This document shows, one piece after another, positions 917 through 51,022 of a DNA stretch of 64,000 bases (its first letter is position 1; each line of letters begins with the position of its first letter). Made by a program: the position numbers and the translations under genes. The DNA comes from Escherichia phage nithesis: the sequence record PV252060.1; one strand, 5' to 3'. Below the pieces are notes generated by a model that was not told the origin of the DNA, made no database searches, and worked only from the letters and a program-made list of their open reading frames with translations.

Positions 917-1161
917 AAAGAAAGGTAGAGTTAGTACCTAACTGGAAAAGATGTTGGAAGTGGGCATCCATTCAGATTAGTACATTTGGTTTAATTCTGT
1001 TCTCTGCTGTAGATATTATCCAACCAATGCTGACTGGGTTACCCCGTCACATCCTGGAAGATATTCCCCATGGTTCCAATATTGCAATTGCACTGTTTGC
1101 CTTAAACATCATAGGCAGATTGATACGATTCCGTCCAAAGGAAGATTCACATGAAAGCTAA
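901..1161 (+). CDS. putative holin, two predicted transmembrane helices
   Basis: Internal ATG at 901 of the 835..1161 ORF (835 is GTG); hydrophobic segments ISTFGLILFSAVDII and IAIALFALNIIGRLI; directly upstream of endolysin. Confidence 0.4.
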   Translation: MVRRLKRKVELVPNWKRCWKWASIQISTFGLILFSAVDIIQPMLTGLPRHILEDIPHGSNIAIALFALNIIGRLIRFRPKEDSHES

Positions 1162-8983: not shown

Positions 8984-11638
8984 ATGGGTTTATTCAGTGG
9001 GAAGACCAAAGTATACGTAGCATCCTCTGTCTATAACATGGCAGGGGATATACACAAACGTCCCAACTATATGAAGACTGTAGTCATCGGTAACATTGTT
9101 TCCAATACAGGATTCACTATGGCAGACACTATCTCTGATAGTTATCTGAATGGACCGGGTATTCGTATGCGACTGTTCTCTAGCTGGAGTAAGAACCACT
9201 ATGATTCAGAAGTTGGTATGGCTGGCTCTTCATTAGGTGTACTGGCTAAGATTGACCCTACTGTTATAGAGGGTCAAATTACACCACCTGCTGGAGAGTC
9301 CGTCTATGTTCAGGCAGCAGAGATTGGTTTTGCTGACTTTGAACAATGGTGTGACCAGTATCTTTATGAGAATGCCCCAAGTCGAATCATGGAACGATTC
9401 GATATAGACATTGATGAAGATACTAATGAAATTACTATGACCTCCCTGGATGGAGGTTCTACTATTAAATTCACACCTACTAACTTTGAACCAGGTGCTT
9501 TGTATCTCTATGCTGATTACTCGTTTTACAAGTCCCCCTCTATCAATCCACCTGTAGTAGGGCCAACTACTGTCTATGATGATGAGGATGACTTACCCTC
9601 TACTTTGCTATGGACTACTGTATCAAGTGATACAACAGCCAATACAACTAACCTTACTAAGATTATACATACTCATTCTGTTTACTCTGATGGTAGACCG
9701 GATGAAGATAGTACCGTCACGGAACCAAGTGTAGATAACTGGAACTCTTACGTTAAGGTCTACCGTAGAGGGTTTACTGAGAAACCTGATGGTGTGACTG
9801 TGGTTGTATCTGACAGGGTAATGACTCATAAAAAGTTTGGTGAGGTTCAATCCAGTACCACTGTAACTACCAATGTAGTTGATATAGGTGGAGGAGTTAC
9901 TCGTACTGACACAATCACTACAACCACAGAGACACTGGTTCGTAAGTATTCCTCCCAGACTACTCGTACAGATACAGAGATGACTGCTGTTGGTACACCT
10001 AAGATGCTTATCTATAAGCAGAACTCTGGTAACGTTGCACTGGATTCACTGTTTGAGACTGAGGCTACTGACAACCGATTCTACCCATTCATCCCAATCA
10101 GGAATGATAAACGATGGGTAGAGAATGACCCAATATACCCTCACTGTAAGAAAGCTCTTTATAAAGCTACAGGTGGTAAGCTCAATAATGTAGTAACTGA
10201 GCTTAAGAAGAATAAGGATATAGGAGATATCCAATACATTTATGGCACATTCGGTGTATCTCTTAATACCCCAGAAGATACTGCTAAAGAATACATCTAC
10301 CGTTTCTTTCAGATGGCTACTGAAGCATTCCCACCTGACCCAACCTACCCTACATTGGAAGCAGTGATTGCAGGTTATCAGGCAGCTAATGATGCAGTTG
10401 ATGCATACGTAAAATGGTGGAACGAGGGGGTAAATCAGGTAGTTGGAACACCCCCACCACTGCCAGAATACCCTGTCATACCTAAGCGAGAGTTTAGGGT
10501 ACATAGTAATAAGCAGTACAAGTATGACATGACTATTGGCTGGAATTACGTGTCTGAAACTACTCACTCAGGGCAAGCATGGTCTGGTGCTAAGCAGGGG
10601 CAACTTCGATCCAGGTATGCAGGAGATATAACCCTTACCCGTAAGAACATACGTACTGCTAGTAACTCTGGCTCAACTAAGAAGCTGGAGGTTACTACTA
10701 CATTTTACTCTATGCAGGAATACGAACTGCTTTGGCAGGATGGTAATAATACCTACCGTAAACTTAGGGTACTGGGCCTAAACCACAATAACAGGGTATA
10801 TAAAAATAAGTCAGTGCATATTGATGTTGCCGGGGCAATGGGTGATGCAGAGGAGAGTGGATTTATTATTCCACTGCATACTAACATCTATCGTTCAATG
10901 TCACTGGTTCGAAGTACTCAGTTATCCACTGCCTGTTCCTACTTAGTGATGAACTCATATAAGAAGGTTAAGCAGAAGTGGTATCAAACATCTGCTTTTA
11001 AAATTGTGGTTGTTGTAGTTGCTGTCGTTGTATCCGTATTCACTATGGGTGCTGGTGGTGCAGGTATACTTGGAGCATATGGTGCAGTTGGTGCATCACT
11101 TGGCTTTGTTGGATTAGCTGCCGTGATAGTTGGTGCTGTAGCAAACGCTATTGCTGGAATGATTCTGGTATCCATTATTACAAAAGTATCCACTGCACTG
11201 TTCGGTGATAAACTGGGCTTTATTATTGCAGCTATTGCTTCGATGGTAGCTATGAATGTTGGTACTGCATTGTCTACTGGTACATCTCTGTCTACCTTAG
11301 CCAGTGAGATGATGAATGCCCAAAACATCATGCAGCTTACCAGTTCAGTTGGTAATGGTATTAGCCAGTATATTAATGCATCTACGGCTGCTACTATTCA
11401 GAAAGCAGAGAAAGTAATGCAGCAGTACAATACTGATATGATGGCAATCAATAAGCAGTATGAAGAGATGTTTGGTACTGCTGGACAGGGCGTAATTGAC
11501 CCTATGCAATTCGTGTCAATGGAGTCACTGGATTCTTTCTTATCCCGTACACTTATGACTGGTTCGGATATAGCTGACATGTCTTTAAACATGGTTGGCA
11601 GCTTCTCTGACATGACCCTTAATACTGATCTTGTTTAA
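8984..11638 (+). CDS. large virion protein with C-terminal Gly/Ala-rich transmembrane segments; internal/ejection protein candidate
   Basis: 884 aa; C-terminal VVVVAVVVSVFTMGAGGAGILGAYGAVGASLGFVGLAAVIVGAVANAIAGMILVSIIT; upstream of vRNAP. Confidence 0.45.
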   Translation: MGLFSGKTKVYVASSVYNMAGDIHKRPNYMKTVVIGNIVSNTGFTMADTISDSYLNGPGIRMRLFSSWSKNHYDSEVGMAGSSLGVLAKIDPTVIEGQITPPAGESVYVQAAEIGFADFEQWCDQYLYENAPSRIMERFDIDIDEDTNEITMTSLDGGSTIKFTPTNFEPGALYLYADYSFYKSPSINPPVVGPTTVYDDEDDLPSTLLWTTVSSDTTANTTNLTKIIHTHSVYSDGRPDEDSTVTEPSVDNWNSYVKVYRRGFTEKPDGVTVVVSDRVMTHKKFGEVQSSTTVTTNVVDIGGGVTRTDTITTTTETLVRKYSSQTTRTDTEMTAVGTPKMLIYKQNSGNVALDSLFETEATDNRFYPFIPIRNDKRWVENDPIYPHCKKALYKATGGKLNNVVTELKKNKDIGDIQYIYGTFGVSLNTPEDTAKEYIYRFFQMATEAFPPDPTYPTLEAVIAGYQAANDAVDAYVKWWNEGVNQVVGTPPPLPEYPVIPKREFRVHSNKQYKYDMTIGWNYVSETTHSGQAWSGAKQGQLRSRYAGDITLTRKNIRTASNSGSTKKLEVTTTFYSMQEYELLWQDGNNTYRKLRVLGLNHNNRVYKNKSVHIDVAGAMGDAEESGFIIPLHTNIYRSMSLVRSTQLSTACSYLVMNSYKKVKQKWYQTSAFKIVVVVVAVVVSVFTMGAGGAGILGAYGAVGASLGFVGLAAVIVGAVANAIAGMILVSIITKVSTALFGDKLGFIIAAIASMVAMNVGTALSTGTSLSTLASEMMNAQNIMQLTSSVGNGISQYINASTAATIQKAEKVMQQYNTDMMAINKQYEEMFGTAGQGVIDPMQFVSMESLDSFLSRTLMTGSDIADMSLNMVGSFSDMTLNTDLV

Positions 11639-12095
11639 CAGGAGAATCCCCATGGATTTGTCATTCTTAACAGGCAACCAAACCCCACAGCCAGCTGCTA
11701 TGTCTTGGATGTCTAACAACAATCAGAACTTTAATACCCCAGCTATGAACTATAACCCAGGTGCAGCTATTGGTATGGGTACGAATTTGGGAGCATCTTC
11801 CCCTACTACTTTCATGTCTGGTTCAGCTAATCAGTTGGGCCTGAACGTACCCACCTTCCAGTTAGGACTGGGTGCACTTGGTTCATTAGCTAATATCTAT
11901 AGTGGTTTCCAGGCCAATAAGTTAGCCAAAGACCAGTTGAACTTTGCTAAGAGTGTTACTAACACTAACCTGAATAACCAGATTAAGTCTTATAACACTG
12001 CACTGGAAGACCGTGCTCGTAGCCGTGCTGTTGCAGAGAACCGTGACCAGTCTACTGCTGATGCTTATATTGCAGCTAATAAATTAACCCGTTAA
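11631..12095 (+). CDS. hypothetical virion protein
   Basis: 154-aa ORF overlapping the stop of the preceding gene. Confidence 0.35.
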   Translation: MFNRRIPMDLSFLTGNQTPQPAAMSWMSNNNQNFNTPAMNYNPGAAIGMGTNLGASSPTTFMSGSANQLGLNVPTFQLGLGALGSLANIYSGFQANKLAKDQLNFAKSVTNTNLNNQIKSYNTALEDRARSRAVAENRDQSTADAYIAANKLTR

Positions 12096-12107
12096 TAGGA
12101 AACCATC

Positions 12108-14054
12108 ATGGCTCAAATTACATGGCGTAATGTTGATGCACCTAACTTCTCTGGAGTTGGTGACAGCATTCGCACATTTGGCAACATGATTGGTAACGCC
12201 ACCTCCGGCTTAAGTGATGCACTGGGTAATTTCCAGAACGCTGCCAAGCAGGAGGCTGGCAATGCCGTCATGATGAATGCTATGCAGTATCAAGACCCTA
12301 CTGAGTACCGTAATGCTTTAGCATCCGGTGCACTATTTCAGGGGGTTGACCCTTCATTAGTAAGTCAGCGTACCCTCCAAAATCTGGATGAACGAGCAGG
12401 TACTCTTTTGACCCAACAAGGTCAGCAGGGAATTAATGACTACAATGCTTATCGTTTTGGCCGTTTACAGGATACTGACTCTGCATTAGATAATGCATCT
12501 CCAGCTATTCGTTTACTGTCTGAGGCATATCAGTCTGGTGACCAGAACCGTGTTAATGCTGCACTGAGTCAAACCCGTGATGCACTGTCTGCACTACCTG
12601 CTGACCAACAACTGGATTTGTTGAGTCGTCTACAAGGACAAGGTGGTGCTGCTATTAATCAGGCGAGTAATCGCTTTGACCTTAATGTACGTCAACGTAA
12701 TGATGCTGATTCACAAGCTGCATCCGGTATATTGACGGATATTTTCCGTAGTGCTTCTACACCTATGGATGCTCTTACACTGGCAGAGTCTGCTATGCAG
12801 AATGCTTCCCCGGGTGTACGTGCTGCAATCATGCGAGGTGTGAACCAGAGATTCCCAGGTACTTACGCTACGTCTCCTTCTGGTTCTGCTCCTGGAACTG
12901 CTGGTACTCGTTCTGGTTCTCCTTATGATGCAACCTATACCTTTGCTGCTACTGATAAGCCTATTACTGAAATGACATTAGGTGAGGTTACTAATCATCA
13001 GCAAACTATGATTAATAACCCGTCACAAGGTCATTCCCCTGTGGGTGCATTCCAGATTAATAAAGCTACTCTGGAGGACTATGCTCCTAAAGTACTTGGT
13101 TCAGATTGGCGTAATCAGCAAATGACTCCTGAAGTACAGGACAAAATAGCTGAAGCAATCTTTAATGACCGCAAGGGTGGTAACCTTTCCAAGACTTGGG
13201 CTGCATTGCCTGATTTAGGTGTAGGCGGTTATAAGGATATGCCTTGGAGTGAGGCACGTCAGTTAATTGCACAAGCAGAAGTAGGTGCACCCCTTGATCA
13301 GCTACAGACCCAGCAAGTAGTCTCAAACATGGCAGGCAATACGGTTGCTGCTCGTCAGTCTGAAGATAATACTGGAACCATTACTGCTAACTATGCTCGT
13401 GCATTACGTGACAACTCTACCATTGGTGAAGTAGCAGACCGTCTTCTTAAGGATGCTTTTAAAGGTTCTGAGAAAGGATGGATGATTGCACGACTGAATG
13501 ATGTTATGCAGGAATCTGGGCAGTCTCCTGCTGTAGCTGCTGAGATTCTTAAGCAGTCTACTACCAACGTACCGGAAGGTATGATTAGTCGAGCACTTGA
13601 TGCACTTAACCCATTCATCTCCAATGAGGGTGGTGGTGGTATTCGTATTGACGATACCGTTGCCAGAGAACTAGCACGTTCAGTACGACGTGGGGAAGGT
13701 ATTGAAGCTACTGCTCGTGATAATGTTCTTACTCTGGTACAGGGTAATATTGAAAATGCTCAGAACCAGGTAACACAAGCAGAAGCCTTACTTGCTGATA
13801 CCCGTCGTCGTGTAGCTGCTGGACAAAGTGGACTTGCTGCTACTATTCCTGCTCGTGAAGCTGAGTTAGTAAGAGCACGTGCTGCACTTGATGCTGCTGT
13901 TAATACTGTGGTAGCTGACCAGGGAAATCTGGTTCCACAGAACTTCCGTTCTAATGCTTCAGTAGAACGTGAACGTAGTCGTGAAGATGAAGAACGAGCT
14001 AAACGTTATCGAAAATTAGCAGAGGGTTTACCTCCCTATATGCAACCTCGATAA
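12108..14054 (+). CDS. virion protein, function unassigned
   Basis: 648-aa ORF immediately upstream of vRNAP, followed by a terminator. Confidence 0.4.
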   Translation: MAQITWRNVDAPNFSGVGDSIRTFGNMIGNATSGLSDALGNFQNAAKQEAGNAVMMNAMQYQDPTEYRNALASGALFQGVDPSLVSQRTLQNLDERAGTLLTQQGQQGINDYNAYRFGRLQDTDSALDNASPAIRLLSEAYQSGDQNRVNAALSQTRDALSALPADQQLDLLSRLQGQGGAAINQASNRFDLNVRQRNDADSQAASGILTDIFRSASTPMDALTLAESAMQNASPGVRAAIMRGVNQRFPGTYATSPSGSAPGTAGTRSGSPYDATYTFAATDKPITEMTLGEVTNHQQTMINNPSQGHSPVGAFQINKATLEDYAPKVLGSDWRNQQMTPEVQDKIAEAIFNDRKGGNLSKTWAALPDLGVGGYKDMPWSEARQLIAQAEVGAPLDQLQTQQVVSNMAGNTVAARQSEDNTGTITANYARALRDNSTIGEVADRLLKDAFKGSEKGWMIARLNDVMQESGQSPAVAAEILKQSTTNVPEGMISRALDALNPFISNEGGGGIRIDDTVARELARSVRRGEGIEATARDNVLTLVQGNIENAQNQVTQAEALLADTRRRVAAGQSGLAATIPAREAELVRARAALDAAVNTVVADQGNLVPQNFRSNASVERERSREDEERAKRYRKLAEGLPPYMQPR

Positions 14055-14067
14055 AATCTTACATACT

Positions 14068-14095
14068 AATAAAGCCCCATCCGGGGCTTTTCTCT
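14068..14095 (+). terminator. rho-independent terminator
   Basis: aaagcccc-atcc-ggggcttt stem-loop followed by tctctt. Confidence 0.55.
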
Positions 14096-14139
14096 TACAT
14101 TCACTTACTGTACAGTGAATCTTCTTATACGATATAAGT

Positions 14140-17100
14140 TTGAACAGGAATCATGCTATGTCAACATTTGACCGTCTGGCAGGTTTCGCAGACAGCATCA
14201 CTACTGCTAAGCAAGTCGATGTCTCTACTGCAACCTCTCGGAAACAAGCTGAACAAGGGCAAAACCCTTTCCAATTAACTCCTCAGAATGCCTACCAATT
14301 ACAGGCAGGTCGTGCTGGTAACTTAGGTGCTGGTGCATTTGACCTAGGTTCTATTCAGGCAGATTTTACTAATGCCTCTCCTCTTGAAATCATAAACAAA
14401 TATGGCAATGAGCAAGGAATGGACATTCTCAATGCCCGTGTCAATGCAGCTAATGCTGTTCGTCGTGATTTAACTAAGAGTCGTACATATGGTGAAGCAC
14501 TTGGTGATACCCTCTCTGGTGTTGGTCTTGGTGTTGCTAATACCCTTGGGGGCATTGCTGCTCTTGGTACAGGTTTGGTCAATGATAATGCCGGGGCATC
14601 CATTGCTTCCGGTCTTGACTGGTTAAACAAAGGTGTACACAACCTACAGTCTGATGCATTGAATGCTCGTCGTAATGTAGTACAGAACCAGAACGTAATA
14701 TCTGCACAGGAAAATGAGAAACTCTATAAGCAAGATGTTGCTAAAGGAGAAAGTGAACTCGTTGCATCCTTATCTCGTATTGGTCGTGATGCTTATGATT
14801 CTGTTGCTAATACTTTGTCCAATGGCATGGCTGCTACAGATGGACTGGCTGAGGGTGTTGGTTCTCTGTTTACTGGTGGCCCACTTATCCGTGGTGTATC
14901 TGCGCTCGGTAAAGTAATGGTAGGTGGTGATAAAGCTGTTAAGGGTATTACCCTAGCTGCTGAGTTAGGTTCACGTCCTGCACGTACTGCATTAGCTACT
15001 GGTCATGTTGCTGCACCTGCTATAGCAATTGGTGGTATGGAAGCTGGTGGTGCATACCAACAGACTGCTAATGAAATTATGGAAATGCCATTCAGTGAGT
15101 TGGCTGCTAAATCTCCAGTATACCAACAGCATATTAAAGATGGTTTATCTCCTGAAGAAGCACGTCGTCAGACTGCATCTGAAACAGGTATCACTGCTGC
15201 TGGCTTAACTGCTCCGGTTGCTGCTCTTACTGGTCCACTGGTATCCAAGTTTGAACTTAATCCACTTAAAGTAGGTTCATTGGCTGGTGCTGGTTCTAAC
15301 ATGCTGCGTGAGACTGTAGAAGAAGGTATCCAGTCTGGTACAAGTCAGTTTGCACAGAACAAAGCAATTCAGGGTAATGTAGATGCTAATCGTGATTTGC
15401 TTAAAGGTGTGGGTGAACAAACTGGTCTTGGTGCATTGTATGGCTTTGGTTCTGCTGGAGTTGCTCAAGCTCCTGGTGCAACTGTTAAGGCTGCTGGTGC
15501 TGCCGTTGGTCCTGCTGTACGTACTACCCTGGCTGGTGCTTCTCTGGCTGGTAAGGCATTAGTAAAAGCTGCCTCCCCTATTACTAACATTCTGGTTCAA
15601 CGTGGGGAAGAAATAGCCAAACGTAATGAACAAGCATCCCCTGTATCAGATGCTACGGTTAACGCTGCTGCACAAGAAGCTACTGCTCAGGCAGAACAAG
15701 CACAAGCAATTGTTCAGGAAGCAGTAGATGCAATGGATATTTCTCCTGAAGAGAAAGCTGCTGCTACTCAGTATGCTGCTGACTTAACTCAGGCGATGAA
15801 GTTCGACCCAGTAGAACTGGAACAAGCTAGTCCTGCAATCCATGAAGCTGTTTCTGGTTCCACTAACCGTGTTGAAGCTATTCAGAAGATGGCTGACTTG
15901 GTTAATACTGCTGAAGACCCTAATGTTCAAATGGAAGCTGCAATCCAGATGTATGACAACATCATGTCTATGGATAGCTTCATTAACCGTGACCCAGGTG
16001 CATTAGCTAATCTGGAACAAGGTTCTCCTGCTGCTAATATTGTTGACCAGTTCTCTGGTCTGATGGCTAACGTTCAGAATACACCAAAGGTACTTCGTGC
16101 ATTCCGTGCTATTCATTCTATGATTCAGGAACAGGCTGAAGCAGGTAAACTGAAAGCTACTGAGGAAGCCAACCAAGCTCAGGCAAACAATATTGCTATG
16201 GCTGCTGATATGTCTCCAGAAGTACTGGATGCAGATTCAGTGAACATGGTTCTGAAACATGCAAGTGAAGGTAAGATTACACTGGGGAATCGTCAGCGTG
16301 CTGCCCTGCAATCTGCTGCTGCTCTATTGCAAGGAGCACGAGAATTTGACGCTAAAGCAGAAGAACTAGGCTTACGTCCTCAAGACATTGTTAGTAAACA
16401 GATTAAAACCGACGAATCTCGTTCTAATGAAGGCCAGTACTCTGCGTTGCAACATGCTAAACGCATTCGTTCTGCGTACAACTCTGGTAACTTCGATTTG
16501 GCTTCCGCTTATCTCGACGACTTTATGAAGTTCGCCCAGCACATGCAGAATAAGGTCGGAGCGTTGAATGAGCATCTGATTTCTGGGAATGCGGATAAGA
16601 ATAAGTCTGTCCATTATCAGGCTCTTACTCCCTCCCGTGAATGGGTACGTAGTCGTACTGGCCTCGGTATCAATCCGTATGATACCAAGTCTGTTAAGTT
16701 TGCCCAGCAAGTAGGACTGGAAGCCAAGACCGTAGCTGATATTGCTAACGCACTTGCTACGGCTTACCCGGAGCTTAATGTTTCTCATGTGAAAGTTACC
16801 CCATTGGATTCACGTCTGAACAAGCCTGCTGCCCAGGTAGTTAAAGAGTTCCGTCAGGGCAATCTTGATGCTGCTCAATCCCAACAGACCAATGAACCAG
16901 TGAATCAGGTTGATGAAACTCCTGTTACGAAACAGGAACCAGTTACCCCTACTGTACAGACTAAACCCTCTGTTAGTGAAGCTGTTAAAACAGAACCTAC
17001 TATTAAAGAGTCTAAACCACAGACTGTAAAAGAACCTGAGAATCAGTCTGAAAAACAGGATGTCATCGAGAAGTCTACTGAATCTGAAAGGGATACTTAT

Positions 17101-20100
17101 GTGAAAGAGAATACTATTTCACAGGAAACCCTTAATAAGTATGGCGACCGTAAAGAGAGTCCTTGGCTCTTCGCAGATGGTACTGTTGTTGGTTCTAATG
17201 GTGACCATATCAGTCTGTCCGATGTGTTTGGGCATGATGGTTATCGCGATATGTCTATGGACACTGGTGCTGTTCGCTCTACCTTCTACAAAGGAAGTGA
17301 GCAACCATTTGTATCATTGCAACTGTTTGATAATCAGAAGCTGACTGCTGAACAATTCAATACTGTTCAATCATTCGTAGAAGCAAACAATGCACTGATT
17401 CAGATTGGTGTAGATATGTCTGGGCGTAATACCAATAACGTTGAAAAAGAAGAAGTATCACTGGCTCAACTGAAAGCAGACTATACCGTTGGTGGTAAAC
17501 CTCTATCGGAAATGGAAACAGTGTTCCCTGTCTATAACAATGACAAAACACCGAACCAGTTCCTTAAAGCATTTTCTCTGCCAGAAGAACCTAAGTCCCG
17601 TACCATTGGTTCTGAGTCTCCTTTGACTGATGTTAAGAAAGCACTGTCTTCTGCTGCTCGCTTTGAAGCATTCACTCAAAAAGAAAATAACGCTCTCACA
17701 AATGATGTGATTAAGCGTTATCAGGACTTGTTTGATTTTGGTGAAACTTTGAAGACTACTCTGTCTGACCGTCTGGCTAAGTTCCTTGCTAACAAGAACG
17801 TTGGTAAACGTTTTGTAGAAGGTACTGAGGCTAACCGTTGGGTAGGTGGTAAGTTACTTAACATCGTTGAGAAAGATGGTGATACCTTTAAGTTCAATGA
17901 CCAGTTGTTAGAGACTGCTGTACTTGCTGGTCTGCAATGGCGATTAACTGCTACACAGAATGCTGCTGTTAAAGACGTGAAAGACGTAGCTGCTATTACT
18001 GGTGTAGAAGCATCTCTGCTACCAGAAGGCATTTTGGCTGACTTCGAAAATGCTCAGACATTGGTTGAAGCTACTAACTCACTGGCTCAAAAGATTGAAT
18101 CTTATTGGGGTTTAAATCGTAATCCTAATGCACCACTGGGTTATACCAAGGGTATCCCAATGGCAATGGCTACAGAGATTCTGTCTTCTCTCATTGAAAT
18201 GGGTGAAGTTAAAGAGTCCATGCTGGATGTATCTGAGATTGACCCAGAATCTAACAAGACTGTTGGTCTGTATACCATTGAGAAGTTAGATGATAACGAT
18301 GCCATTAACAAATTCCCTACTGCTATTGAAGAAGCTGTTCTCGTAGAACCAGTAGAGAAATTGTACCTGGGTGATGATATTCCTTCCGTGGCTCAAACTC
18401 AGTTACGTAACCCGGCTGTTAAGAATACCCCGGAACAGAAAGCTGCTCTTAAAGCTGAGCAGGCTACTGAGTTCCGTGTACATATGCCGATGGTTAACTT
18501 CTACGAAGCATTAGGTCGCGACAATATTCTGGAATTGATGGGTGCTGGTGCTCTTAATCCAGAATTGTTGAATGTGAATACTGCTAAGTCTCTGGAAGGT
18601 AAAAACCTGTCAGTGTCTATGGCATATGATTCTTTGTTTGGTGTAATCAACCAGATTAAGGAACAAGAGAATGGTCTGGATACACCTATTCACTACGGTT
18701 ACAACATGACCCGTGTAGGTCGTATGCAGATGCTTGGTAAGAACAACCCACAGTCCAGCAAGTTGGTTCGTGAAGCAATTCTGCCAACCTTCTCTACTAT
18801 CGACTTGAGTAATGAAAACAGCCAAACGTTCTCTGATTTCCAGTTAGGTCTGGCTCAGGCATTGGGTATCAAAGTTCATAAAATGTCCCGTGAAGTTATG
18901 TCAGATGAGCTGACTAAAGCTCTGGAAGGTAAACTGAAGCCTGCTGTTGATATGATGGTTGAGTTTGATAAGTCTGGACACTTACCTACCAATGCAGTGG
19001 ATATTCTGAAGACTTCTTTGGGAAGCGATAAATCATTCGTAGCTCTTATGGCTCTTATGGAATATGCCCGTTATCTGAATAGTGATGACCGTGCCAACTT
19101 TAATACCCCACTGTACGTTGAAGCCGATGGTGTAACCAATGGGCCAATCAACGCAATGGTATTAATGACTGGTGGTAAGTTCACATCAGACTGGATTAAG
19201 AATACTGCTAAGGGGGGTTTGTTCTTTGGTAAAGCTGGCAAGACTATGAACGAGCATCATTCGCATGAGGACAGTGTTGACCTGTATGAAGCATCCACTA
19301 ATAATCTACAACAGGCACTGAATGAATTACGCAATACTTACCGTAACAACGTTCCTGTTATGAACCAGATGAATCATCTCCAGAAATTAATGGATTTGTT
19401 CATTAAAGACTTCAATCTTAATGAAGATGGTACTCTGGACCTGAAACGTGGTATTGCTAAAAACCCACTGACTATTACCATCTATGGTTCTGGTGCTCGT
19501 GGTATTGCAGGCAAGATGGTTAGTGCAATTACTGATGTCATCTATGAACGCTTTAGTGACGTTCTGCAAGCTCGTGCTGCTGACCCTAGCATTTCTCCAG
19601 CTATGGCTATGTTTGGTAAGGAGGCTGCGTCTGAGGCCGATGCTCAGGCTATGCTGGATACTTTCCTTACTTCTATGGAAGCACTGACTGGTAATGTTCC
19701 GGTTATGCGTAAAGGGGAGTTGTCTATTCAACAAGTAGAAGGTGCTCTGACTGGTAAGTTAAATCCCCAGAAGTTTACTGTATCTGGGAATGCTCTGAAG
19801 AACTTGCAGGAGAATATGCTCCATCTGTTCGTTGAACCAATGCGTACTGGTATCCGAAATACTGTTGGTGAGGGTTTGATGCATTCTACTGAGAATTTGC
19901 AGAAGGCTACTCAGATTCAATCTCTGGTATTGCAGGATATGTTCCAGCAAGCAGTACAGGCTAAGCTGGCAGAAAAAGAAAAAGACCCAACGTGGAAAAA
20001 GGGTGATTTCTTAACACAGAAAGAACTGAATGAAATCCAGAATAGCTTAGCTCCACTGGCTCCAATGATTGAGACTGGTTCACAAACTTTTTATATTGCA

Positions 20101-40188: not shown

Positions 40189-42234
40189 TTACTTAGCAGC
40201 TTTGACCAGCTTGGTAGCTAACTTAGCTTCTTCTTCAGTCAGACCCATTGCAGTGAATGACTTCTTAGCATGACGCTTATAGTCTTGCAGAGCATGACCT
40301 TTCTGATAGTCGGAGTACGTCGTATCGTTAAGGATGCTACGTAGATTATCAGCATATTTACCAGATGGAGCTACTTTAGTGGCAGTAGCTGGTCGGTAAA
40401 CCTTAGCTTTCTTCACTGATTTAGTTTTTGGTGCAGGAATGCGAGTACTACGGATAGTAGCAATAGCGTCTACTACATCGCTACCTACTTCGAATGCACC
40501 CCAAGGCTTACGAGCTTTACTACGCAGTTCTACCAGAAGATCAGCAGCAGCTAACTTATCTTCTGGTGTTGTTGCATGAAGGAACTCTTTAACCAGTTCC
40601 TGAATCTGTTCTTTCACAGTAGGAGCCTTCTTATTAACAGGTTTAAGGTCAGTAGCCTTCACTGGTTCAGCAGCTACAGCTTCATTCAGTGACTCTTCCA
40701 TGTTCAGTGCTTCTTTACTAGCAACTGTACGGAATTGTTCTACAGAACCAGATGTGAGATTGGTGTATTTGAGGTTAGTACCATAATGACCACCAACCAT
40801 AATAAGTGTGGTAGGTGAACTATGGTTCCCAACGATGGCATCATTAAGCAGCTTCTTACCTACTTCTGTTTTAGACAGGTAGATACCATTGTTAACGTTA
40901 TTACGCTCTTCTTCCGGTAACTCAGCAATAATATGATATGCAGATACACGCATCTTATTAGTGTTGTACTGAGGAACAGCAAATACATCTTCCGGTGCTA
41001 CTTTACCGAGAATAGTTACGTTACCACCGAAGCTACGGATATAGCTCATGGATGCTACATGCAGACCATTTGAGCAGTCCTGACGACGGTCAGGGTCTAC
41101 CAGGTCTTCACGTACCTGCACTTTACAGCCTACCCATTGACGAATATTACCTGAGTGACAGTCAACGAATACACGCTTACCACCATTTACCTCTTTATAC
41201 TTCAGACGCTTCAGGAACAGGATTGAACCATCATCAGCAATAGGCAGTTCAGCAGTTTCCATGAATTTCATCAGGTCTTCCACTGAGTGCAGACGGTCTT
41301 TAATAACCGGAGCCAGACGCTCAAGGAACTTAGTAAAACCCTTGTAGTCTTTCAGCTTGGCAGACTGACGTAAGTGACGATGCAGGTTCTCAACTCCAGG
41401 GATAACCCCATTGTTGGTAACAGCAACAACCACTTCATCTTCCTTCATTTCGGTGTGGAAGTTAGCGTCATCGGTACTAATAGCACCTAATGCAGCTAAC
41501 TTCTCGGAGGCAGCAGCCAGTTTGTCCTGGTTCGTAACTTTAACCACTTCCACATGAGGAGGTGGCACTTCCCCCCTGTTAGTAAATACAACGTATACGC
41601 CTTTGATGTGCTGAGCTTGTTTAGCAAACTCATTCATCTCATCATCGGATACTGCACGAACTGCAACAGGCCATTCTTGTTTGAGCATGGTGTTGGTATG
41701 TTCATGACCCCAACACAGTACGTCGTTAATAAAACGAACCAGTGCAGGATGGTTATGGTCCTTATCCCAGCCAGTAACCCACATCAGATTGTCACGTCTG
41801 TCGTAGAAACCGTCAGATACTGTTACTTCCGGTTCATTAGCCTGTACAGCCAGGAAGGTATCCATGGCTTTAGACACTAGTGTCTTAGTAGGATTGCCTA
41901 ACTTGATATCTGAGACGATATGTGCAGGTGGAACACCTGTACCATCCTGGAAGAACTCTTTCAGTTTAGCTTTAGCTACCTTGAAAAAACGGACGAATCC
42001 GTTAGTGTTCTTCTCTGCTTCCAGATATTCAGTACGCAGGTTTACTTCTGGTGCGATGTTTACTTCTATCTGGTCTTTGGTAGTTCCCAGACCTTTGGTT
42101 TGTGCTTCAGATACAATGCGAGCAACCCGTGGGTCGCTCTGAGGATATACAACCGTGGAGCCATCAGGCTTCCACAGTGTAAGGTTACGACTGTCAACTG
42201 CCAGTGCGATGATAGAAATCAGTTCGATTTTCAT
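40189..42234 (-). CDS. rIIB-like protein candidate
   Basis: 681-aa ORF immediately downstream of rIIA-like gene; assignment by gene order only. Confidence 0.35.
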   Translation of the reverse strand: MKIELISIIALAVDSRNLTLWKPDGSTVVYPQSDPRVARIVSEAQTKGLGTTKDQIEVNIAPEVNLRTEYLEAEKNTNGFVRFFKVAKAKLKEFFQDGTGVPPAHIVSDIKLGNPTKTLVSKAMDTFLAVQANEPEVTVSDGFYDRRDNLMWVTGWDKDHNHPALVRFINDVLCWGHEHTNTMLKQEWPVAVRAVSDDEMNEFAKQAQHIKGVYVVFTNRGEVPPPHVEVVKVTNQDKLAAASEKLAALGAISTDDANFHTEMKEDEVVVAVTNNGVIPGVENLHRHLRQSAKLKDYKGFTKFLERLAPVIKDRLHSVEDLMKFMETAELPIADDGSILFLKRLKYKEVNGGKRVFVDCHSGNIRQWVGCKVQVREDLVDPDRRQDCSNGLHVASMSYIRSFGGNVTILGKVAPEDVFAVPQYNTNKMRVSAYHIIAELPEEERNNVNNGIYLSKTEVGKKLLNDAIVGNHSSPTTLIMVGGHYGTNLKYTNLTSGSVEQFRTVASKEALNMEESLNEAVAAEPVKATDLKPVNKKAPTVKEQIQELVKEFLHATTPEDKLAAADLLVELRSKARKPWGAFEVGSDVVDAIATIRSTRIPAPKTKSVKKAKVYRPATATKVAPSGKYADNLRSILNDTTYSDYQKGHALQDYKRHAKKSFTAMGLTEEEAKLATKLVKAAK

Positions 42235-42238: not shown

Positions 42239-44806
42239 TTAGTTACCTTTCAGTTTATTTAGACGATTACGGTAGAGGGACTTAAACCCAGGAATATCCT
42301 CTGGATTCTTCTTGAGATGTTTAACCAAACTACCTAAGTCCAGTGTCTGTAGAATGTCATTTTTATTCCAGCTATAACTGAATAATTCTTTGTAACCGTT
42401 AAGTATTTTAAAGTACTTATGGTTACGGGGATTAACCATCTTTGCATACGGCTCTAAGTCATTCACTGACTTAATACAACCCATTTCAACAAGTTTTTCT
42501 TTGTTGTCGTGTGGCCGATTTCGTAGAAAGTCATACGCCCATTCATATTCTGGTTTAAAAATCAGATTCTGTAATGGTTTGAATGTTAGACCCAGTATGT
42601 CGAGGATTTCCCAATATTCCCTGTCATCCAGTCCCACGTATTCAAGAATACCAATACGGTGTTCAGTAACATATTTCTTGAAGCCTTTACTGGTAATAAC
42701 TGACATCAATTCACTAAAGCGAACATCATCAATGTGGATAGCACCACGTCGTTTAGCCTTGTTAGCTTCGATTTGATTGCGACAGACAACTGTCTCTGCT
42801 TTCATCTCATCGGACAATTCATACCATTTCCACATGGTTCCTATTTGAGCAGTTACAGGACTACCAGAACCAACCTGATTGGCTAGCACGTAGTACTTAG
42901 GTTGCTCCACTTCGACGAAACCGTACTTCTTATGGCGACTTGAGTCAGCAAAACCCTTGTCAATGAATGGTTTAGATACCAAATCACCGCTCTTATCCCG
43001 TACAGGGGTAGTACCAAGAACTGCATTCAATGAAATCAGAGCATTGGTTTTACCCCCTGCTTTGGTTTTATTGGCAGCTATTGTCTTAGCACGTTTCTCA
43101 GCAGCTAACTTAGCCTGCTCTCTACGGAAGTTAGTCGGTTTGTCCCACTCATTATATTGAGTAAGGTCAATTACTCTATAACCCATAGCAGTGAACTTAG
43201 CTACAGCTTCCTCTGCTGCACCCTTCTTAGGACCAACAACGTGAACAAAAGCTGTACGCTCCAGGTCACCTCGGTTGTACTCAGGGAAGTATGAGAAAGA
43301 GTCTGCACAATCAGATAAACGTCGGGTAACTACAACGTTCTTGGTAGTGAATATGCCAATACTCTGATGAGAGTTATGGAATATCCTAAAGTAGTCAGCG
43401 AGTTTACCCTTCTCCAAGTCAACACTGTTACCCTGGTTCACTATGTAACCAGACCACTTAATACCAGTAGCTTTTAAAGCAGCAAGCTGAGGTAAGTGCA
43501 GATGTCGATAAACTAATTCATGGAATTGGGAGTGTGTACCTTCTTCACGAGTATCCTTAAGAGCACGCATAGCCTTACCATAAAGTTTCTTAAGACCTGC
43601 ATATTCAGGACGAGCTAACAATGCTTTATTGGATAAATTACGCCAATGCTTGATGTGATGCTTACGTTGCTTAGCCCATAAACTAGAGGACATATAACGT
43701 TGAACGATTCTGTCTGTAACAGCAAGCATAAAAGAAGGATAGGTCCAGAAGCAAGTAGAGGATTTAGAGGCGTATTCTTCAATCTGCTTAATAGCTTCAG
43801 GAATCTTAGCCTTAATCTCTTTCTCCATACGGTCTACTAAATCTACACATAGAGTAGTAATACCATCGTCGGTTAACTTCTGGTTAGACAGCGTTTCTCG
43901 ACTAGGAGCAATAGCCAGAGTATCCGGTGCAGCCTGAACTACTAAATTAGATGCTCCAATAATATTCATGAAGTTGAGGATAAGACCTACAGCCTCTTCA
44001 CTAGCCGGGCTGGATACAATTGGGTACATTACGTTACCGTAACGAACGAATATGTTGCTGTTACCCATATAGCCTTTATACCAGCTATCAGACATATCAT
44101 ATGAACCAGGTTCAAATGACATGCCTAATGTATTCAGTAGAGTGTAGTCACCCTGCTGAATGCTATTACCTGCTTCTGTTTTAACAAGTTTAGGGATACT
44201 AAGCTTAGCTTTAATCTCACCATTGAACACGATTGATGTGATGTAATGCACGAAGGTATTTACGTCATGTTTACCCAACTGGAATTTAACTTCCAGTCCA
44301 GATTCCTCAGTGGGAATATTAGTAACAATAGGAACAATACCAGGCTTACCATCATTCTCAATCGCAGCTTTAGCTACGTTATATACCGACATCTTCCCTT
44401 GGTTCCATGAAGTAACCTGGAAGCTATCTGTATAAGCGAATGGGGATTTACATCCCAGACCAAAGCCACCAGTAACACTACTGTTGGACTTTTTAGTAGA
44501 TGTACCATAGACACCATAAATGGAACCAATGAGTTCATCTGGGATACCGTTACCGTAGTCACGAAAGGTAATAAAGTTGTTTGTATCAATAGTGATACGA
44601 ATAGGGGTATCAGTCTTACCTGCTTCAATATGAGCATCCCAACTGTTACAGATAGTCTCACGGACTACTGCCAGAGTAGGATTGTTATACAAGGAAGTAC
44701 TTAATACATGGAAGAATGCCGGGTCATCAGAGATGCCAAAGGCAATTGTTTCTTTGCCACCCAGTGTCGCTGAGGTAGCTATTTCATTGGTATCTGCAAC
44801 TAACAT
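42239..44806 (-). CDS. rIIA-like protein with N-terminal GHKL ATPase-type motifs
   Basis: ETICNSWDAH (N-box), RDYGNGI (DxGxG), TGGFGLGCKS (G-rich) in order near N-terminus; 855 aa. Confidence 0.55.
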   Translation of the reverse strand: MLVADTNEIATSATLGGKETIAFGISDDPAFFHVLSTSLYNNPTLAVVRETICNSWDAHIEAGKTDTPIRITIDTNNFITFRDYGNGIPDELIGSIYGVYGTSTKKSNSSVTGGFGLGCKSPFAYTDSFQVTSWNQGKMSVYNVAKAAIENDGKPGIVPIVTNIPTEESGLEVKFQLGKHDVNTFVHYITSIVFNGEIKAKLSIPKLVKTEAGNSIQQGDYTLLNTLGMSFEPGSYDMSDSWYKGYMGNSNIFVRYGNVMYPIVSSPASEEAVGLILNFMNIIGASNLVVQAAPDTLAIAPSRETLSNQKLTDDGITTLCVDLVDRMEKEIKAKIPEAIKQIEEYASKSSTCFWTYPSFMLAVTDRIVQRYMSSSLWAKQRKHHIKHWRNLSNKALLARPEYAGLKKLYGKAMRALKDTREEGTHSQFHELVYRHLHLPQLAALKATGIKWSGYIVNQGNSVDLEKGKLADYFRIFHNSHQSIGIFTTKNVVVTRRLSDCADSFSYFPEYNRGDLERTAFVHVVGPKKGAAEEAVAKFTAMGYRVIDLTQYNEWDKPTNFRREQAKLAAEKRAKTIAANKTKAGGKTNALISLNAVLGTTPVRDKSGDLVSKPFIDKGFADSSRHKKYGFVEVEQPKYYVLANQVGSGSPVTAQIGTMWKWYELSDEMKAETVVCRNQIEANKAKRRGAIHIDDVRFSELMSVITSKGFKKYVTEHRIGILEYVGLDDREYWEILDILGLTFKPLQNLIFKPEYEWAYDFLRNRPHDNKEKLVEMGCIKSVNDLEPYAKMVNPRNHKYFKILNGYKELFSYSWNKNDILQTLDLGSLVKHLKKNPEDIPGFKSLYRNRLNKLKGN

Positions 44807-46787: not shown

Positions 46788-47230
46788 TAGAATGACCTTA
46801 GATAGTTGGTGATACCACTTCTCGTTTCTGTGATTCTCTTAACCTGAACATATACCAGCTTAAACTCACTACGAGGTAGTTCCTGTAATACTGCCACACC
46901 TTCAGTAAGAGCCACAGAACACGCTATGGCGGTTTCTTCTTTAAAGGAGTACAAGTCTTCATACATGAGGGCTTCATACTCTTTACGGAGCATACAGAGA
47001 GCATTTCTTGCCTTATCACTTACTTCTTGTGAACCAGCAGTCATAGCTAAGCTGTATATGATAAAGACTTGTTCAAAAACAAAGTCCAGTAATCTATCAG
47101 GGTTGTTAGTCCCCATAAATAATTTTGTTATGCAGGAACGAGCTTTACGGTTGAGTTCATACTCATCCTCTATGCCTTTATTATAAAGAACAGGATTTCG
47201 TTCCCTTTTTCTTAGAAATGGGATACGCAT
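46787..47230 (-). CDS. hypothetical protein
   Basis: 147-aa ORF. Confidence 0.4.
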   Translation of the reverse strand: MRIPFLRKRERNPVLYNKGIEDEYELNRKARSCITKLFMGTNNPDRLLDFVFEQVFIIYSLAMTAGSQEVSDKARNALCMLRKEYEALMYEDLYSFKEETAIACSVALTEGVAVLQELPRSEFKLVYVQVKRITETRSGITNYLRSF

Positions 47231-47613
47231 TAGTATTTACTACCTCTTCTATACCAGGGGTAGTGATGGGTAGTGCTCTTACCTTTGAACACATCCTTGG
47301 TACGGGGATTCTTTTGTATTTGGGCCAGATAAAGATGCATTTCGTCATAACATGGACTAAGCCAGAACTTATCTATGATTCGGTCTACCTTAGATTTCAG
47401 ATGTGGTTCTGGGGGAATGTATGGATGAAAAGATCTGCTAGTAGTCCATCCTTTTTGAACAAGAACCTGCATTGCTGCATAAACATCAGGACCAATTCCA
47501 TTATCTTCTACTAGGTCATGGATAGTTTTACCCAAAGTGAGCATTGCAGTTTGTTCTAGTTTACTTAAGTCCAGCCCATACAAGATAGACTTACCATTTC
47601 GTCTGTTTGTCAT
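47230..47613 (-). CDS. hypothetical protein
   Basis: 127-aa ORF. Confidence 0.4.
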   Translation of the reverse strand: MTNRRNGKSILYGLDLSKLEQTAMLTLGKTIHDLVEDNGIGPDVYAAMQVLVQKGWTTSRSFHPYIPPEPHLKSKVDRIIDKFWLSPCYDEMHLYLAQIQKNPRTKDVFKGKSTTHHYPWYRRGSKY

Positions 47614-47625
47614 AAGAGTACCTGT

Positions 47626-47655
47626 AAATAAAAAAGCCCACTGGTTAGGTGGGCT
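47626..47655 (-). terminator. rho-independent terminator
   Basis: Minus sense agcccac-ctaacca-gtgggct followed by tttttattt. Confidence 0.5.
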
Positions 47656-47730
47656 TGGGTTAGGAGATGGATAAGCAATGAGCTGGAAGCAACTTCCACA
47701 AGCACCACTATGTAATGATGCTTAGATTAG

Positions 47731-48027
47731 TTACTCTGCTTTACTGCTCGTTTGAGACACGTTGTATTGGTTACCACTACCAACGTTAACGATTGTAGTC
47801 TGAGACTGTCCTTTATTAGACAGTGACCAAATCAGTGCTACTACCCAGAATACTAGTGACCAGCCTAATACGATATTAAGCACACCAATGCCCCACTTAG
47901 AGGCATGGCCTCGTGCAAAAGCAATGATAGTAGGGATAAGGTATACAGCTAATATGAATAAGAAAACAAGGATTGCTGCTAAAGATTCCATGATGGTTCC
48001 TATGTGGGGTTGAGTTAGTTTCTTCAC
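47731..48027 (-). CDS. superinfection-immunity (T4 Imm-like) membrane protein
   Basis: AFARGHASKWGIGVLNIVLGWSLVFWVVALIWSLS resembles the Imm-family core; two transmembrane helices. Confidence 0.5.
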   Translation of the reverse strand: MKKLTQPHIGTIMESLAAILVFLFILAVYLIPTIIAFARGHASKWGIGVLNIVLGWSLVFWVVALIWSLSNKGQSQTTIVNVGSGNQYNVSQTSSKAE

Positions 48028-48064
48028 AAATAGCCCAACTATGTTGGGCTATTTAGGCAGCTAC

Positions 48065-48274
48065 TTACTCAGCATCTTTGCTTGTAGGAGCAAGAGCTTT
48101 TTTCAAGTAATTACGTACTGAACGATAAGTTTCTTTGGTTTCCATAGCACCATCATTTACGAATGTGATGCGTGCACAATCAGACAGTGGAACAGATTCC
48201 ACTGCAATCACGTTTGCAGCATTAATGGTTACACGTACATTTGAGGTTGCATTAGTTACTTGAAATACTGACAT
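48065..48274 (-). CDS. hypothetical protein
   Basis: 69-aa ORF. Confidence 0.3.
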   Translation of the reverse strand: MSVFQVTNATSNVRVTINAANVIAVESVPLSDCARITFVNDGAMETKETYRSVRNYLKKALAPTSKDAE

Positions 48275-48283: not shown

Positions 48284-48790
48284 TTATTTACTGCTTCTTG
48301 CAGCTACTGGTTTGTTTTCCTGATTCTGATACTTGCCATTGTAATTAGCAGGTTCTTGAACCAGATGAAATAATACTTGAGCTATCCCAGCACCAGCCGG
48401 GATATGCAATTTCTTGCGACCATTATAGACCAGTTCAAGAGTCAAATACCCTTTCCATCCCGGTTCTATTACGGTATTGAACACAGATAATGCACGTCTT
48501 GCCCACGTAGACTTATCGTGAACGATGGCTACGCAGGATGGTGACATGTTGAACTTCTCAATTGCTGAAGCCAATGTGAACTTACCGAGATGGCGTGATA
48601 CTTGATCTCCATCAACGACCTTCACCATTGGAATCAACCCAAATAAGCGATAAAAGGTGATATCTTGTTTGATACGAATATCGTAACCAGCTTCACCTAA
48701 TCCATAGCTTACACCGTGTTCGGATACCTTATGGTCTGGAACATCCAGCAATTGGGATGAACGATAGAGAGAATTACCATTAACAACCAT
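48284..48790 (-). CDS. dCTP deaminase / dUTPase-fold protein
   Basis: IEPGWKGYLTLEL resembles the dCTP-deaminase/dUTPase motif; 168 aa. Confidence 0.5.
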   Translation of the reverse strand: MVVNGNSLYRSSQLLDVPDHKVSEHGVSYGLGEAGYDIRIKQDITFYRLFGLIPMVKVVDGDQVSRHLGKFTLASAIEKFNMSPSCVAIVHDKSTWARRALSVFNTVIEPGWKGYLTLELVYNGRKKLHIPAGAGIAQVLFHLVQEPANYNGKYQNQENKPVAARSSK

Positions 48791-49965
48791 TATTTCATTC
48801 CTTTAGGGATATGAACTACCTCCCCAAAAGGTACGGTAGCATTGGGATTATTCAGAACACACCAGATGATTGGAATATCAAATGGCAATTCTTCCATAGG
48901 GCGAACATACATATCAGAGAATATGATTGCAGCGGTTGGCTTATTCTTAATAATCCACTCGCGTACTGGTTCAAGGTTTGTACCACCACGACCGGTAATC
49001 TTAATCTCTTCAAAAGTATCTTCTTCAGTGATGTCTATTTCTTCCTGGATAATATCGTCGAAGGTAATTAGGGACATCTTCTTAGGATTGAACTGGCTCT
49101 TAACGTAAGCAACCTCTGAGTTAAAACGCAGAGAGTCAGCACTACTAATAGAACCAGATACATCCTCAAAGTAGGCTAAGTGACGTAGACGTCCTTCATC
49201 ATCTTCCAAGGAAGGTAGATAAATATCTGTGTAACGACGGTTAGGTCTGGCCCACGTATAGTGAGTGTCATCAATGTCGGTAAAGAAGTTCATGAGAACT
49301 TCCTGCCATGGAACCACTGGTTTAAGGAATTGGGTAATAACCTCTTCCATACGTCCAGCACCTTTACCGGGCATCTGTCCACCGGCCATTTTCTGGCTTT
49401 GCATTGAACGTACTACGTTGTTGACGACAGCACCCTGGGACTGCCCCGAAGTGGGGGATTTCATGTCGCCAGCAAGACCTGCTCCAGCACCCCCTGACGG
49501 CTTCTGCCTTTTCTGGGGGTTCTTCATCAGGTCATCGTAGATGTCTTCTTCGACCCATCCCTTATATTTATGGTCTTTGCAAATACCTTCATTGATACCA
49601 GTGAACTTGTAACCATCTTCTTCTAACTGAAGGTTAATGAAGTGGTCACATGCCTGGTTCCAGATTTCCGGGTCACGGCTTCCACGACGAATGTCATGTA
49701 GATATGCCACATGCCAGAGTTCGTGCATTAATACTGTTTCTCTTGCATCTGGACACATCCAGATAAAGAAATCAGGATTGAAATGGAGTTCTATCCCATC
49801 AGTACATGCAGTGGGACAATCCTCACGTTTCCATGAGAATTTAAGACTACAAAGTAATGAACCAAAGAACGCAGCAGACTTGCCTAGGAAAGCCTGAGCC
49901 TGAATACGGTCATACTCACGCATGAGTTGTTCATCACTAAGTGTGTGCTGAGGAAATTGGTTCAT
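48790..49965 (-). CDS. vWA-domain protein with HExxH metallopeptidase-like motif (partner of MoxR ATPase)
   Basis: HELWH motif; C-terminal region compatible with vWA fold; ATG at 49965 avoids overlap (table start 50046). Confidence 0.45.
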   Translation of the reverse strand: MNQFPQHTLSDEQLMREYDRIQAQAFLGKSAAFFGSLLCSLKFSWKREDCPTACTDGIELHFNPDFFIWMCPDARETVLMHELWHVAYLHDIRRGSRDPEIWNQACDHFINLQLEEDGYKFTGINEGICKDHKYKGWVEEDIYDDLMKNPQKRQKPSGGAGAGLAGDMKSPTSGQSQGAVVNNVVRSMQSQKMAGGQMPGKGAGRMEEVITQFLKPVVPWQEVLMNFFTDIDDTHYTWARPNRRYTDIYLPSLEDDEGRLRHLAYFEDVSGSISSADSLRFNSEVAYVKSQFNPKKMSLITFDDIIQEEIDITEEDTFEEIKITGRGGTNLEPVREWIIKNKPTAAIIFSDMYVRPMEELPFDIPIIWCVLNNPNATVPFGEVVHIPKGMK

Positions 49966-49969
49966 TGTT

Positions 49970-51022
49970 TTATCCGTGAATGTAGCGAGAGATATTAGCA
50001 GCAGCCTTACGCCATTCAGGAGTAGCCTGAAGATCTGGTAATGCATTGCCTACTGTACGGAAGTACAGAATCTTATGGGTGAACGTTCTAAAACGTTCAA
50101 TGTACTGAAGAACATCAACAAAGTTCTCTTCAGTAGTCTTGTTAGCCAAATGGTTAACAGTAGCCCAACACAGGTTGTTATCATCAGGTAGTGCACAGCC
50201 CAGAGGGTCTTTGACTACCTTCTCAATCGTAATTATACGATTGTATACCTGAGTAAACTGAACAAATTCTGTAGCCTTACCAGCAGTAACGTGTCCTGCA
50301 TAGTAGATAGAATCTTCATCAGGAAGAGCACCTTCTGGTAAGTTCTTGAGGTCTTTGTTAACAAAGTCCCAGGTACGAGGGCAACAGAACGTTTTGTTCT
50401 TATGTGCTGGGTCGAAGTCATGCAGATAACCAGGGTTAGCATGTAAGAATGCAACCAGACGTTCATCCCATTGCTGAGGAATCATTACGTCTTCAACAAA
50501 GATGTCGAAGTTAAGTTCCATTTCAAAGTGAACCACACGAGACTGCATTGCAGTACCTAATGGGTTAACAATGGCACGGTCAGTAGCTTTATTACCTGCA
50601 CAGACAATCATCACATTAGGATGAAGTTTTTTCTGACCAGTCATACGGTCTAGAATCAGTTTATATGCAGCAGCTACTACTTCTTTCTTAGCTGAGTTGA
50701 ACTCATCAAGGAATAAGAGCCAGCCATTATACCCTTCTGGTAATTCATCTCCCTCAATTGGGAATAAGTCAGCGAATGGAATAAACTCTGCACGGTCACC
50801 ATTACGGAATGGTAAACCAGACAGGTCTTCCGGGGCAGAAGTAGACAGACGATGGTCTATCAGTTTCATACCAAATTCTTCTGCAATAGAACGAATGATT
50901 GCAGATTTACCCATACCAGGTGATGAAGTCAGGAACGGTACGTTACCTGCTTTCAAAGCACGGATAATAAAGTTACGAGCTTGACGTGAATTACATACGG
51001 TCAAGGAGTCGATGCTTGTCAT
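49970..51022 (-). CDS. MoxR-like AAA+ ATPase
   Basis: Walker A SPGMGKSA; 350 aa; immediately upstream of vWA/HExxH gene. Confidence 0.55.
   Translation of the reverse strand: MTSIDSLTVCNSRQARNFIIRALKAGNVPFLTSSPGMGKSAIIRSIAEEFGMKLIDHRLSTSAPEDLSGLPFRNGDRAEFIPFADLFPIEGDELPEGYNGWLLFLDEFNSAKKEVVAAAYKLILDRMTGQKKLHPNVMIVCAGNKATDRAIVNPLGTAMQSRVVHFEMELNFDIFVEDVMIPQQWDERLVAFLHANPGYLHDFDPAHKNKTFCCPRTWDFVNKDLKNLPEGALPDEDSIYYAGHVTAGKATEFVQFTQVYNRIITIEKVVKDPLGCALPDDNNLCWATVNHLANKTTEENFVDVLQYIERFRTFTHKILYFRTVGNALPDLQATPEWRKAAANISRYIHG

Follow-up and report, generated by a model that had tools for sequence, protein, structure and literature searches.

A T4 Imm-like (PF14373) gene in a G7C-like N4-like podovirus and its candidate role in excluding later phages

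The founding member of the PF14373 (Imm_superinfect) family, and the sole one studied experimentally, is Imm of phage T4. T4 Imm is an early inner-membrane protein that stops the translocation of secondary T-even genomes and leaves adsorption unaffected (PMC6832632; PMC7677548; bioRxiv 10.64898/2026.03.06.709160). The T4 tape-measure protein gp29 co-purifies with T4 Imm, with the helical-bundle domain of gp29 forming the contact resolved by cryo-EM, and exclusion is reduced by the Imm substitutions R33A and W50A (bioRxiv 10.64898/2026.03.06.709160). [quoted passage not shown] HK97 gp15 has been proposed to act via the tape-measure protein, and the colicin immunity proteins prevent a helical bundle from inserting into the membrane (bioRxiv 10.64898/2026.03.06.709160). 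These analogues are mostly expressed from prophages or plasmids, whereas the gene considered here comes from a strictly lytic phage. Among other virulent phages, an imm homologue is part of the core genome of AP22-like Acinetobacter phages (PMC5795418). According to a preprint, N4 itself has no characterized superinfection exclusion system; the RefSeq record of N4 labels gp18 (7668-7982) as 'superinfection exclusion; similar to P22 gp17', an unrelated candidate exclusion gene.

The closest described counterpart of the gene analyzed here is gp27.1 of phage G7C (AEL79635.1), an orthologue with 95% identity over 82 aa that occupies the same site between gp27 and gp28/gp29, is bounded by the same flanking hairpins and terminator, and differs by a few substitutions in the first transmembrane segment and in the last four residues. 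It is annotated as "putative membrane immunity protein" and carries the RefSeq name "immunity to superinfection". Further Gamaleyavirus orthologues are present in Bp4 (orf62), St11Ph5, IME11 and Moo19. The gene is thus not novel, since it was already annotated in the public genomes of G7C, Bp4, St11Ph5, IME11 and related phages. The 64-kb window analyzed here (the whole stretch of DNA under study, from a genome of ~72 kb) is by its sequence that of a Gamaleyavirus (Schitoviridae), a G7C-like N4-like podovirus, and the 3 kb around the gene are 90-94% identical to many Escherichia Gamaleyavirus phages, e.g. ShWW44, Bp4 and PD38. The features of the locus, in the direction in which the minus strand is read and in window coordinates, are as follows.

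48065 to 48274, minus strand: upstream neighbour, homologue of N4 gp27, 69 aa (phrog_7594 at 1.8e-31; synteny with G7C and N4).
48028 to 48054, minus strand: upstream hairpin following the stop codon of the gp27 homologue, with a stem of ~12-13 bp and a 3-nt loop (-18.1 kcal/mol, z = -4.27).
47992 to 48027, minus strand: 5' leader, probably untranslated, equivalent to codons 1-12 of the earlier GTG-based count.
47998 to 48001, minus strand: Shine-Dalgarno sequence AGGA, 6 nt upstream of the ATG, read from the sequence.
47731 to 47991, minus strand: imm-like coding sequence, orthologue of G7C gp27.1, 86 aa plus stop from the most likely start (ORF and translation, PF14373, phrog_1039, identity to T4 Imm, dN/dS).
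47700 to 47723, minus strand: hairpin directly 3' of the imm stop codon (fold of 47615-47735; its counterpart by alignment in the N4 gp27-gp28 spacer is the first hairpin).
47685 to 47697, minus strand: small 3' UTR hairpin, GGAAG-TTG-CTTCC (fold; N4 counterpart GGAAATTCC).
47624 to 47656, minus strand: intrinsic terminator with an 8-bp GC-rich stem, a 7-nt loop and a U-tract (terminator scan; -12.4 kcal/mol).
47230 to 47613, minus strand: downstream neighbour, gp28-like gene, 127 aa (phrog_12812; C-terminal motif common to N4 gp28).

The original prediction, made from the DNA sequence without database searches, had described a 98-aa, two-helix membrane protein resembling T4 Imm and had proposed a Pfam/HMM search as a check. 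That search is clearly positive with both PF14373 and phrog_1039. The product scores 61.1 bits on PF14373 against a gathering cut-off of 27.9 bits, with the alignment spanning profile positions 1-42 of 42 (E = 9.3e-17), and its match to phrog_1039 ('immunity to superinfection') has a value of 9.3e-34. For comparison, T4 Imm itself (NP_049660.1, 83 aa, from NC_000866) attains 58.2 bits on PF14373. PADLOC and NCBIfam models gave no match to the Imm-like protein. On these profile matches, the 86-aa product is assigned to the T4 Imm (PF14373) family.

The minus-strand ORF at 47731..48027 is present as described, runs to 98 aa when counted from a GTG and includes the peptide AFARGHASKWGIGVLNIVLGWSLVFWVVALIWSLS; the ORF stands, and it is the length of the protein that requires revision, to a probable 86 aa counted from the ATG at 47991. 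All eight Gamaleyavirus genomes compared carry the segment ATAGGAACCATCATG, which includes the AGGA, without any change. The GTG, at 48025-48027, directly adjoins the upstream hairpin (48028-48054), and ECBP1 has GAG in place of this codon. Most Imm homologues, T4 Imm included, begin with ME, and G7C gp27.1 is annotated with a length of 86 aa. A start at the ATG at 47991 is therefore the most likely, given the conserved AGGA, the GTG abutting the hairpin, its replacement by GAG in ECBP1, the ME starts of homologues and the G7C annotation. The GTG start and its 98-aa product were rejected on account of the adjoining hairpin, the GAG of ECBP1 and the ME with which most homologues begin.

The two-helix membrane character proposed at the outset is borne out by hydropathy, which gives two hydrophobic stretches at residues ~3-26 and 33-58 (86-aa numbering), separated by a basic loop with R27 and K32. 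Along the protein, an N-terminal transmembrane helix is followed by the loop RGHASKW, then by a second hydrophobic core that includes the LGWS motif, and finally by a variable polar tail. An AlphaFold2 model computed from a 25-sequence alignment places helices at 2-26 and 34-63 and leaves the tail disordered; its mean pLDDT is a modest 66. The acidic N-terminus and the basic loop form a positive-inside pattern consistent with a periplasmic N-terminus, the orientation given for T4 Imm (bioRxiv 10.64898/2026.03.06.709160), and we infer that the protein is located in the cytoplasmic membrane. A sequence-profile search of the PDB returned no true match and no deposited structure for members of PF14373; its only hits, the de novo designed helical protein 8erw and PsaM, were rejected as spurious hydrophobic matches.

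Compared with T4 Imm by BLASTP, the protein shows 29% identity over 69 aa, in a colinear alignment that begins at residue 1 of both sequences. Across the Gamaleyavirus proteins, their relatives and T4 Imm, the invariant columns are Y17, P20, R27, G28, S31, I35, W49 and W55. Of the two T4 residues reported to matter for exclusion, R33 aligns with the invariant R27 and W50 aligns with W44, which is at least 90% conserved. The two proteins are alike in size (83 versus 86 aa) and in having two hydrophobic blocks followed by a polar tail, and in both phages, which are virulent coliphages, the gene stands alone amid genes for nucleotide metabolism and replication. They differ in that their identity amounts to only 29% and in that the phage studied here is a podovirus that has no detectable gp29 target and lacks the partner gene sp (Spackle).

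Within the genus, imm is found in essentially all Gamaleyavirus records, and at least 80% of the protein is covered in 56 phage records. Over codons 1-62 in eight Gamaleyavirus genomes, mean dS is 0.245 and mean dN 0.030; the ratio of ~0.12 indicates that the core of imm is under purifying selection. The C-terminal tail is variable and comes in two types, the shorter of which gives a protein of 80 aa. In Bp4 the orthologue (orf62; 1250-1453 of the Bp4 locus) is 67 aa long through a frameshift after the SNKG motif, with the remaining tail codons recognizable downstream. This points to a polar tail that can be dispensed with, or else to a sequencing error in the Bp4 record.

N4 has no member of the imm family, either genome-wide (family HMM against six-frame ORFs, best E 0.22) or in its gp27-gp28 spacer. 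That spacer measures 113 nt and consists of a hairpin, a small GGAA..TTCC hairpin, the motif CATTGCTTA and a terminator. MAFFT pairs the N4 spacer over its whole length with the sequence that follows imm, both in the window and in G7C. Relative to N4, the Gamaleyavirus lineage therefore carries an extra cassette of ~330 bp, which precedes the ancestral 3' UTR and comprises the upstream hairpin, the ribosome-binding site and imm. The cassette has its own ribosome-binding site, and the terminator is held in common with the ancestral spacer. Such a cassette-like insertion would be typical of accessory competition genes.

The flanking intrinsic terminator included in the original prediction is real: it lies at 47624-47656, ~75 nt past the imm stop codon, corresponds by homology to the N4 terminator in the gp27-gp28 spacer, and is also annotated in SP5M. 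The hairpin directly 3' of imm (47700..47723) is still formed in IME11 with GAAGTATCCC...GGGTACTTC instead of AAGCATCA..TGGTGCTT; this compensatory-type replacement of the sequence, with the fold retained, suggests that the structure of the hairpin matters. The upstream hairpin (48028..48054) is annotated as a stem_loop in G7C and is kept in eight genomes with changes in the loop and at the top of the stem; it is likely to be a weak or leaky terminator, or else an RNA-stability element. No promoter of imm's own was identified in 47992-48027, where a sigma-70 scan has no bearing on recognition by N4 RNAPII.

On the minus strand, the order of genes is gp24-like ATPase, gp25-like VWA protein, dCTP deaminase, gp27 homologue, imm, gp28-like gene, gp29 homologue and ThyX. 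By synteny with N4, this block corresponds to the DNA-metabolism or "middle" genes, and imm would accordingly be expressed with middle-gene timing. The gp28-like gene that follows imm in the window is missing from G7C and present in SP5M, IME11, ECBP1 and Bp4, where its counterpart, orf61, carries a note of similarity to N4 gp28; the C-terminus of the 127-aa product, KGKSTTHHYPWYRRGSKY, matches KSKSTPHMFPWYHRNRRY of the 80-aa N4 gp28. Further upstream, the longest gp25-like (VWA) and gp24-like (ATPase) ORFs, at 48790-50046 and 49970-51022 on the minus strand, overlap by 77 nt, so that the true start of gp25 is probably further downstream. In G7C, an HNH homing endonuclease gene (gp24.1) sits between gp24 and gp25; it is not present in the window. 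Elsewhere in the window, two adjacent tRNA genes (26093-26248, minus strand) occupy a stretch with few ORFs that follows the gene for the virion RNA polymerase; they score 64.8 and 40.7 bits, both above the Rfam tRNA gathering score; according to ARAGORN, one is a tRNA-Ile with anticodon AAT and the second has an irregular anticodon loop.

Outside the genus, the distribution of the family was assessed in two ways. A word-indexed search yielded close relatives only, 84 homologues mostly on contigs of ~72 kb, and the breadth of the family was taken from an exhaustive HMMER search, which returned 12,952 representatives (at 50% identity) with E <= 1e-3, 1,146 of them with E <= 1e-10, ranging in length from 57 to 348 aa. 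Among phages, virulent members of several families carry homologues as standalone genes, T-even relatives and AP22-like Acinetobacter myoviruses among them, and homologues also occur in several genomes of ~45-48 kb, namely Sf11, KFSST1 and TanjaMuster_Bas81. The longer PF14373 proteins are fusions to Zn-ribbon/UPF0547, SHOCT, TPM plus LemA or DUF4429 domains, or contain the Imm module twice, and chromosomal relatives were found in Nocardioides, Georgenia and Naasia and in metagenome-assembled genomes (MAGs) of Alphaproteobacteria, Chloroflexia and Phycisphaerae. By this distribution, the Imm module is both widespread and mobile. At the bacterial loci examined, no gene besides Imm is common with the window, and the genes neighbouring the Nocardioides relative gave no informative context. 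The closest cellular relative examined is a 156-aa protein of a Pseudomonadota MAG (JAKPHK010000114.1, 5944-6414, plus strand), in which an Imm module (64% identity over 55 aa) is joined to a C-terminal Zn-ribbon (UPF0547). A phage-type tyrosine integrase is encoded ~2.3 kb upstream of it, so that this gene is probably located on an integrated element. Given the huge size of PF14373, its fusions and its presence in chromosomes of Actinomycetota and other phyla, membership in the family alone does not prove a role in exclusion.

Taken together, the homology to T4 Imm, the shared architecture, the conservation of the functional residues and the genomic setting lead us to propose that the protein blocks the genome entry of later phages at the cytoplasmic membrane, a role that we regard as probable. 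Under this proposal, the first infecting phage would make the Imm-like protein a few minutes after infection, the protein would insert into the cytoplasmic membrane, and the genome of a later-arriving phage would be stopped from crossing that membrane. The block would operate through binding of the protein with which the incoming virion inserts into the membrane and opens a conduit for DNA, as is the mechanism reported for T4 Imm. The protein bound would not be the same as in T4, since no gp29-like tape-measure protein is detectable in the 64-kb window or in N4 (phmmer with full-length T4 gp29 and with its residues 205-518 against six-frame ORFs, best E 0.71). A corresponding search with T4 Sp found no homologue of Spackle (sp, gp61.3) in the window or in N4 (phmmer, six-frame ORFs, no E < 8).

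In N4, the conduit for DNA comprises gp52 as the outer-membrane complex and gp51 as the periplasmic tunnel, the C-terminus of gp51 and the N-terminal domain of gp50 form the probable inner-membrane complex, and gp53, which contains a hydrophobic knot, plugs the tail (PMC13434306). Homologues of gp50, gp51, gp52 and gp53 are all encoded in the window, at 8984-24912. For self-exclusion, we infer that the most likely target would be the inner-membrane part of this N4-type ejectosome, to which the gp51 homologue would contribute its C-terminus and the virion RNA polymerase (vRNAP) its N-terminal domain. The gp53 homologue (8984-11638, plus strand, 884 aa, phrog_2220) contains a Gly/Ala/Val-rich hydrophobic block of ~100 residues (666-765). 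This block was considered as a membrane-inserting target and set aside, as it is not an obvious inner-membrane element and the N4 counterpart plugs the tail tube (PMC13434306). N4 has homologous ejection proteins yet lacks imm, so that an ejectosome of the N4 type does not depend on imm as a partner. The literature searched contains no experiment on any Imm homologue of N4-like phages.

The absence of a tape-measure protein can also be read in another way, in which imm serves against phages of other families, excluding those that bear tape-measure proteins (T-even-like phages and other myoviruses of the same gut hosts) and not sister Gamaleyaviruses. The sole target demonstrated for the family is a tape-measure protein, which this phage does not have, and the nearest relatives outside the genus belong to myoviruses. 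The closest of these, at 59-64% identity over the core, is the 'superinfection immunity protein' of AP22-like Acinetobacter myoviruses, followed at 43-46% over the core by Imm of JS98-like and Klebsiella T4-like phages. All are encoded by small standalone genes of virulent phages, and they differ from the protein described here in their tails and in belonging to contractile-tailed virions with tape-measure proteins; the literature searched contains no experimental test of any of them. The cassette-like insertion that is missing from N4 would likewise be consistent with horizontal acquisition. Identity to T4 Imm, however, is low, the periplasm-facing loop reads LGWSLVFW here versus FNWSIIGW in T4, and the classical role of Imm is self-exclusion. 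We consider exclusion directed at other families unlikely, if still worth entertaining.

A second reading places the benefit in the envelope of the infected cell. The protein would shield the infected membrane from secondary adsorption, stabilize lysis inhibition and provide resistance to 'secondary traumatization', with no block of DNA entry being required. T4 imm mutants show defects of this kind (PMC6832632), lysis inhibition linked to superinfection has been described in N4 (in a preprint), and the window encodes genes that resemble rIIA and rIIB by position and size, at 42239-44806 and 40189-42234. The T4 phenotypes, however, accompany the translocation block and may follow from it (PMC6832632; bioRxiv 10.64898/2026.03.06.709160), and N4, in which lysis inhibition is documented, lacks imm. 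This makes envelope protection as the primary function improbable.

It is also conceivable, at a very low probability, that the product is a generic small membrane module unrelated to competition among phages, which might serve as a membrane anchor, regulate a membrane protein of the host or act in the manner of a holin or antiholin, as the very large size of PF14373, its occurrence in many bacterial chromosomes and fusions, the resemblance to holins ascribed to T4 Imm (PMC6832632) and the lack of a match to any defence-system model would allow. Against this stand the standalone size and architecture of T4 Imm, the retention of both functional residues, and the location of the closest examined bacterial relative near a phage-type integrase, which fits an accessory gene of a mobile element. 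The position of the gene argues in the same direction: imm is flanked by the gp27 and gp28/gp29 homologues within the DNA-metabolism block, which also contains dCTP deaminase and ThyX, and is far from the lysis cassette expected near 1151-2273 (plus strand) by synteny with N4, whose lysis genes gp60-63 occupy the opposite genome arm. In that region of the window, the ORF at 1151-1786 (plus strand) encodes a 211-aa product with an N-terminal Gly/Ala-rich hydrophobic segment, LAAKGGAVGGVVAAILGAVF, and is by position a candidate homologue of the N4 gp61 SAR-endolysin. That the ORF arose by chance between two hairpins is ruled out, with next to no probability left to it, by the Pfam match (E = 9.3e-17), a dN/dS of ~0.12, the conserved ribosome-binding site and the 84 close homologues.

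A block of genome entry thus remains the reading that we favour, and under it the imm gene of G7C-like phages is an obvious candidate exclusion gene for N4-like phages. An Imm homologue held under purifying selection in a phage that has no tape-measure protein offers a test case for what this family recognizes, and raises the question of whether its members recognize tape-measure proteins only or any membrane-inserting ejection protein. If exclusion were instead directed at phages of other families, it would mean that Imm modules move between phage families with their target specificity retained. The answer would be of relevance to phage cocktails that combine N4-like and T-even phages.
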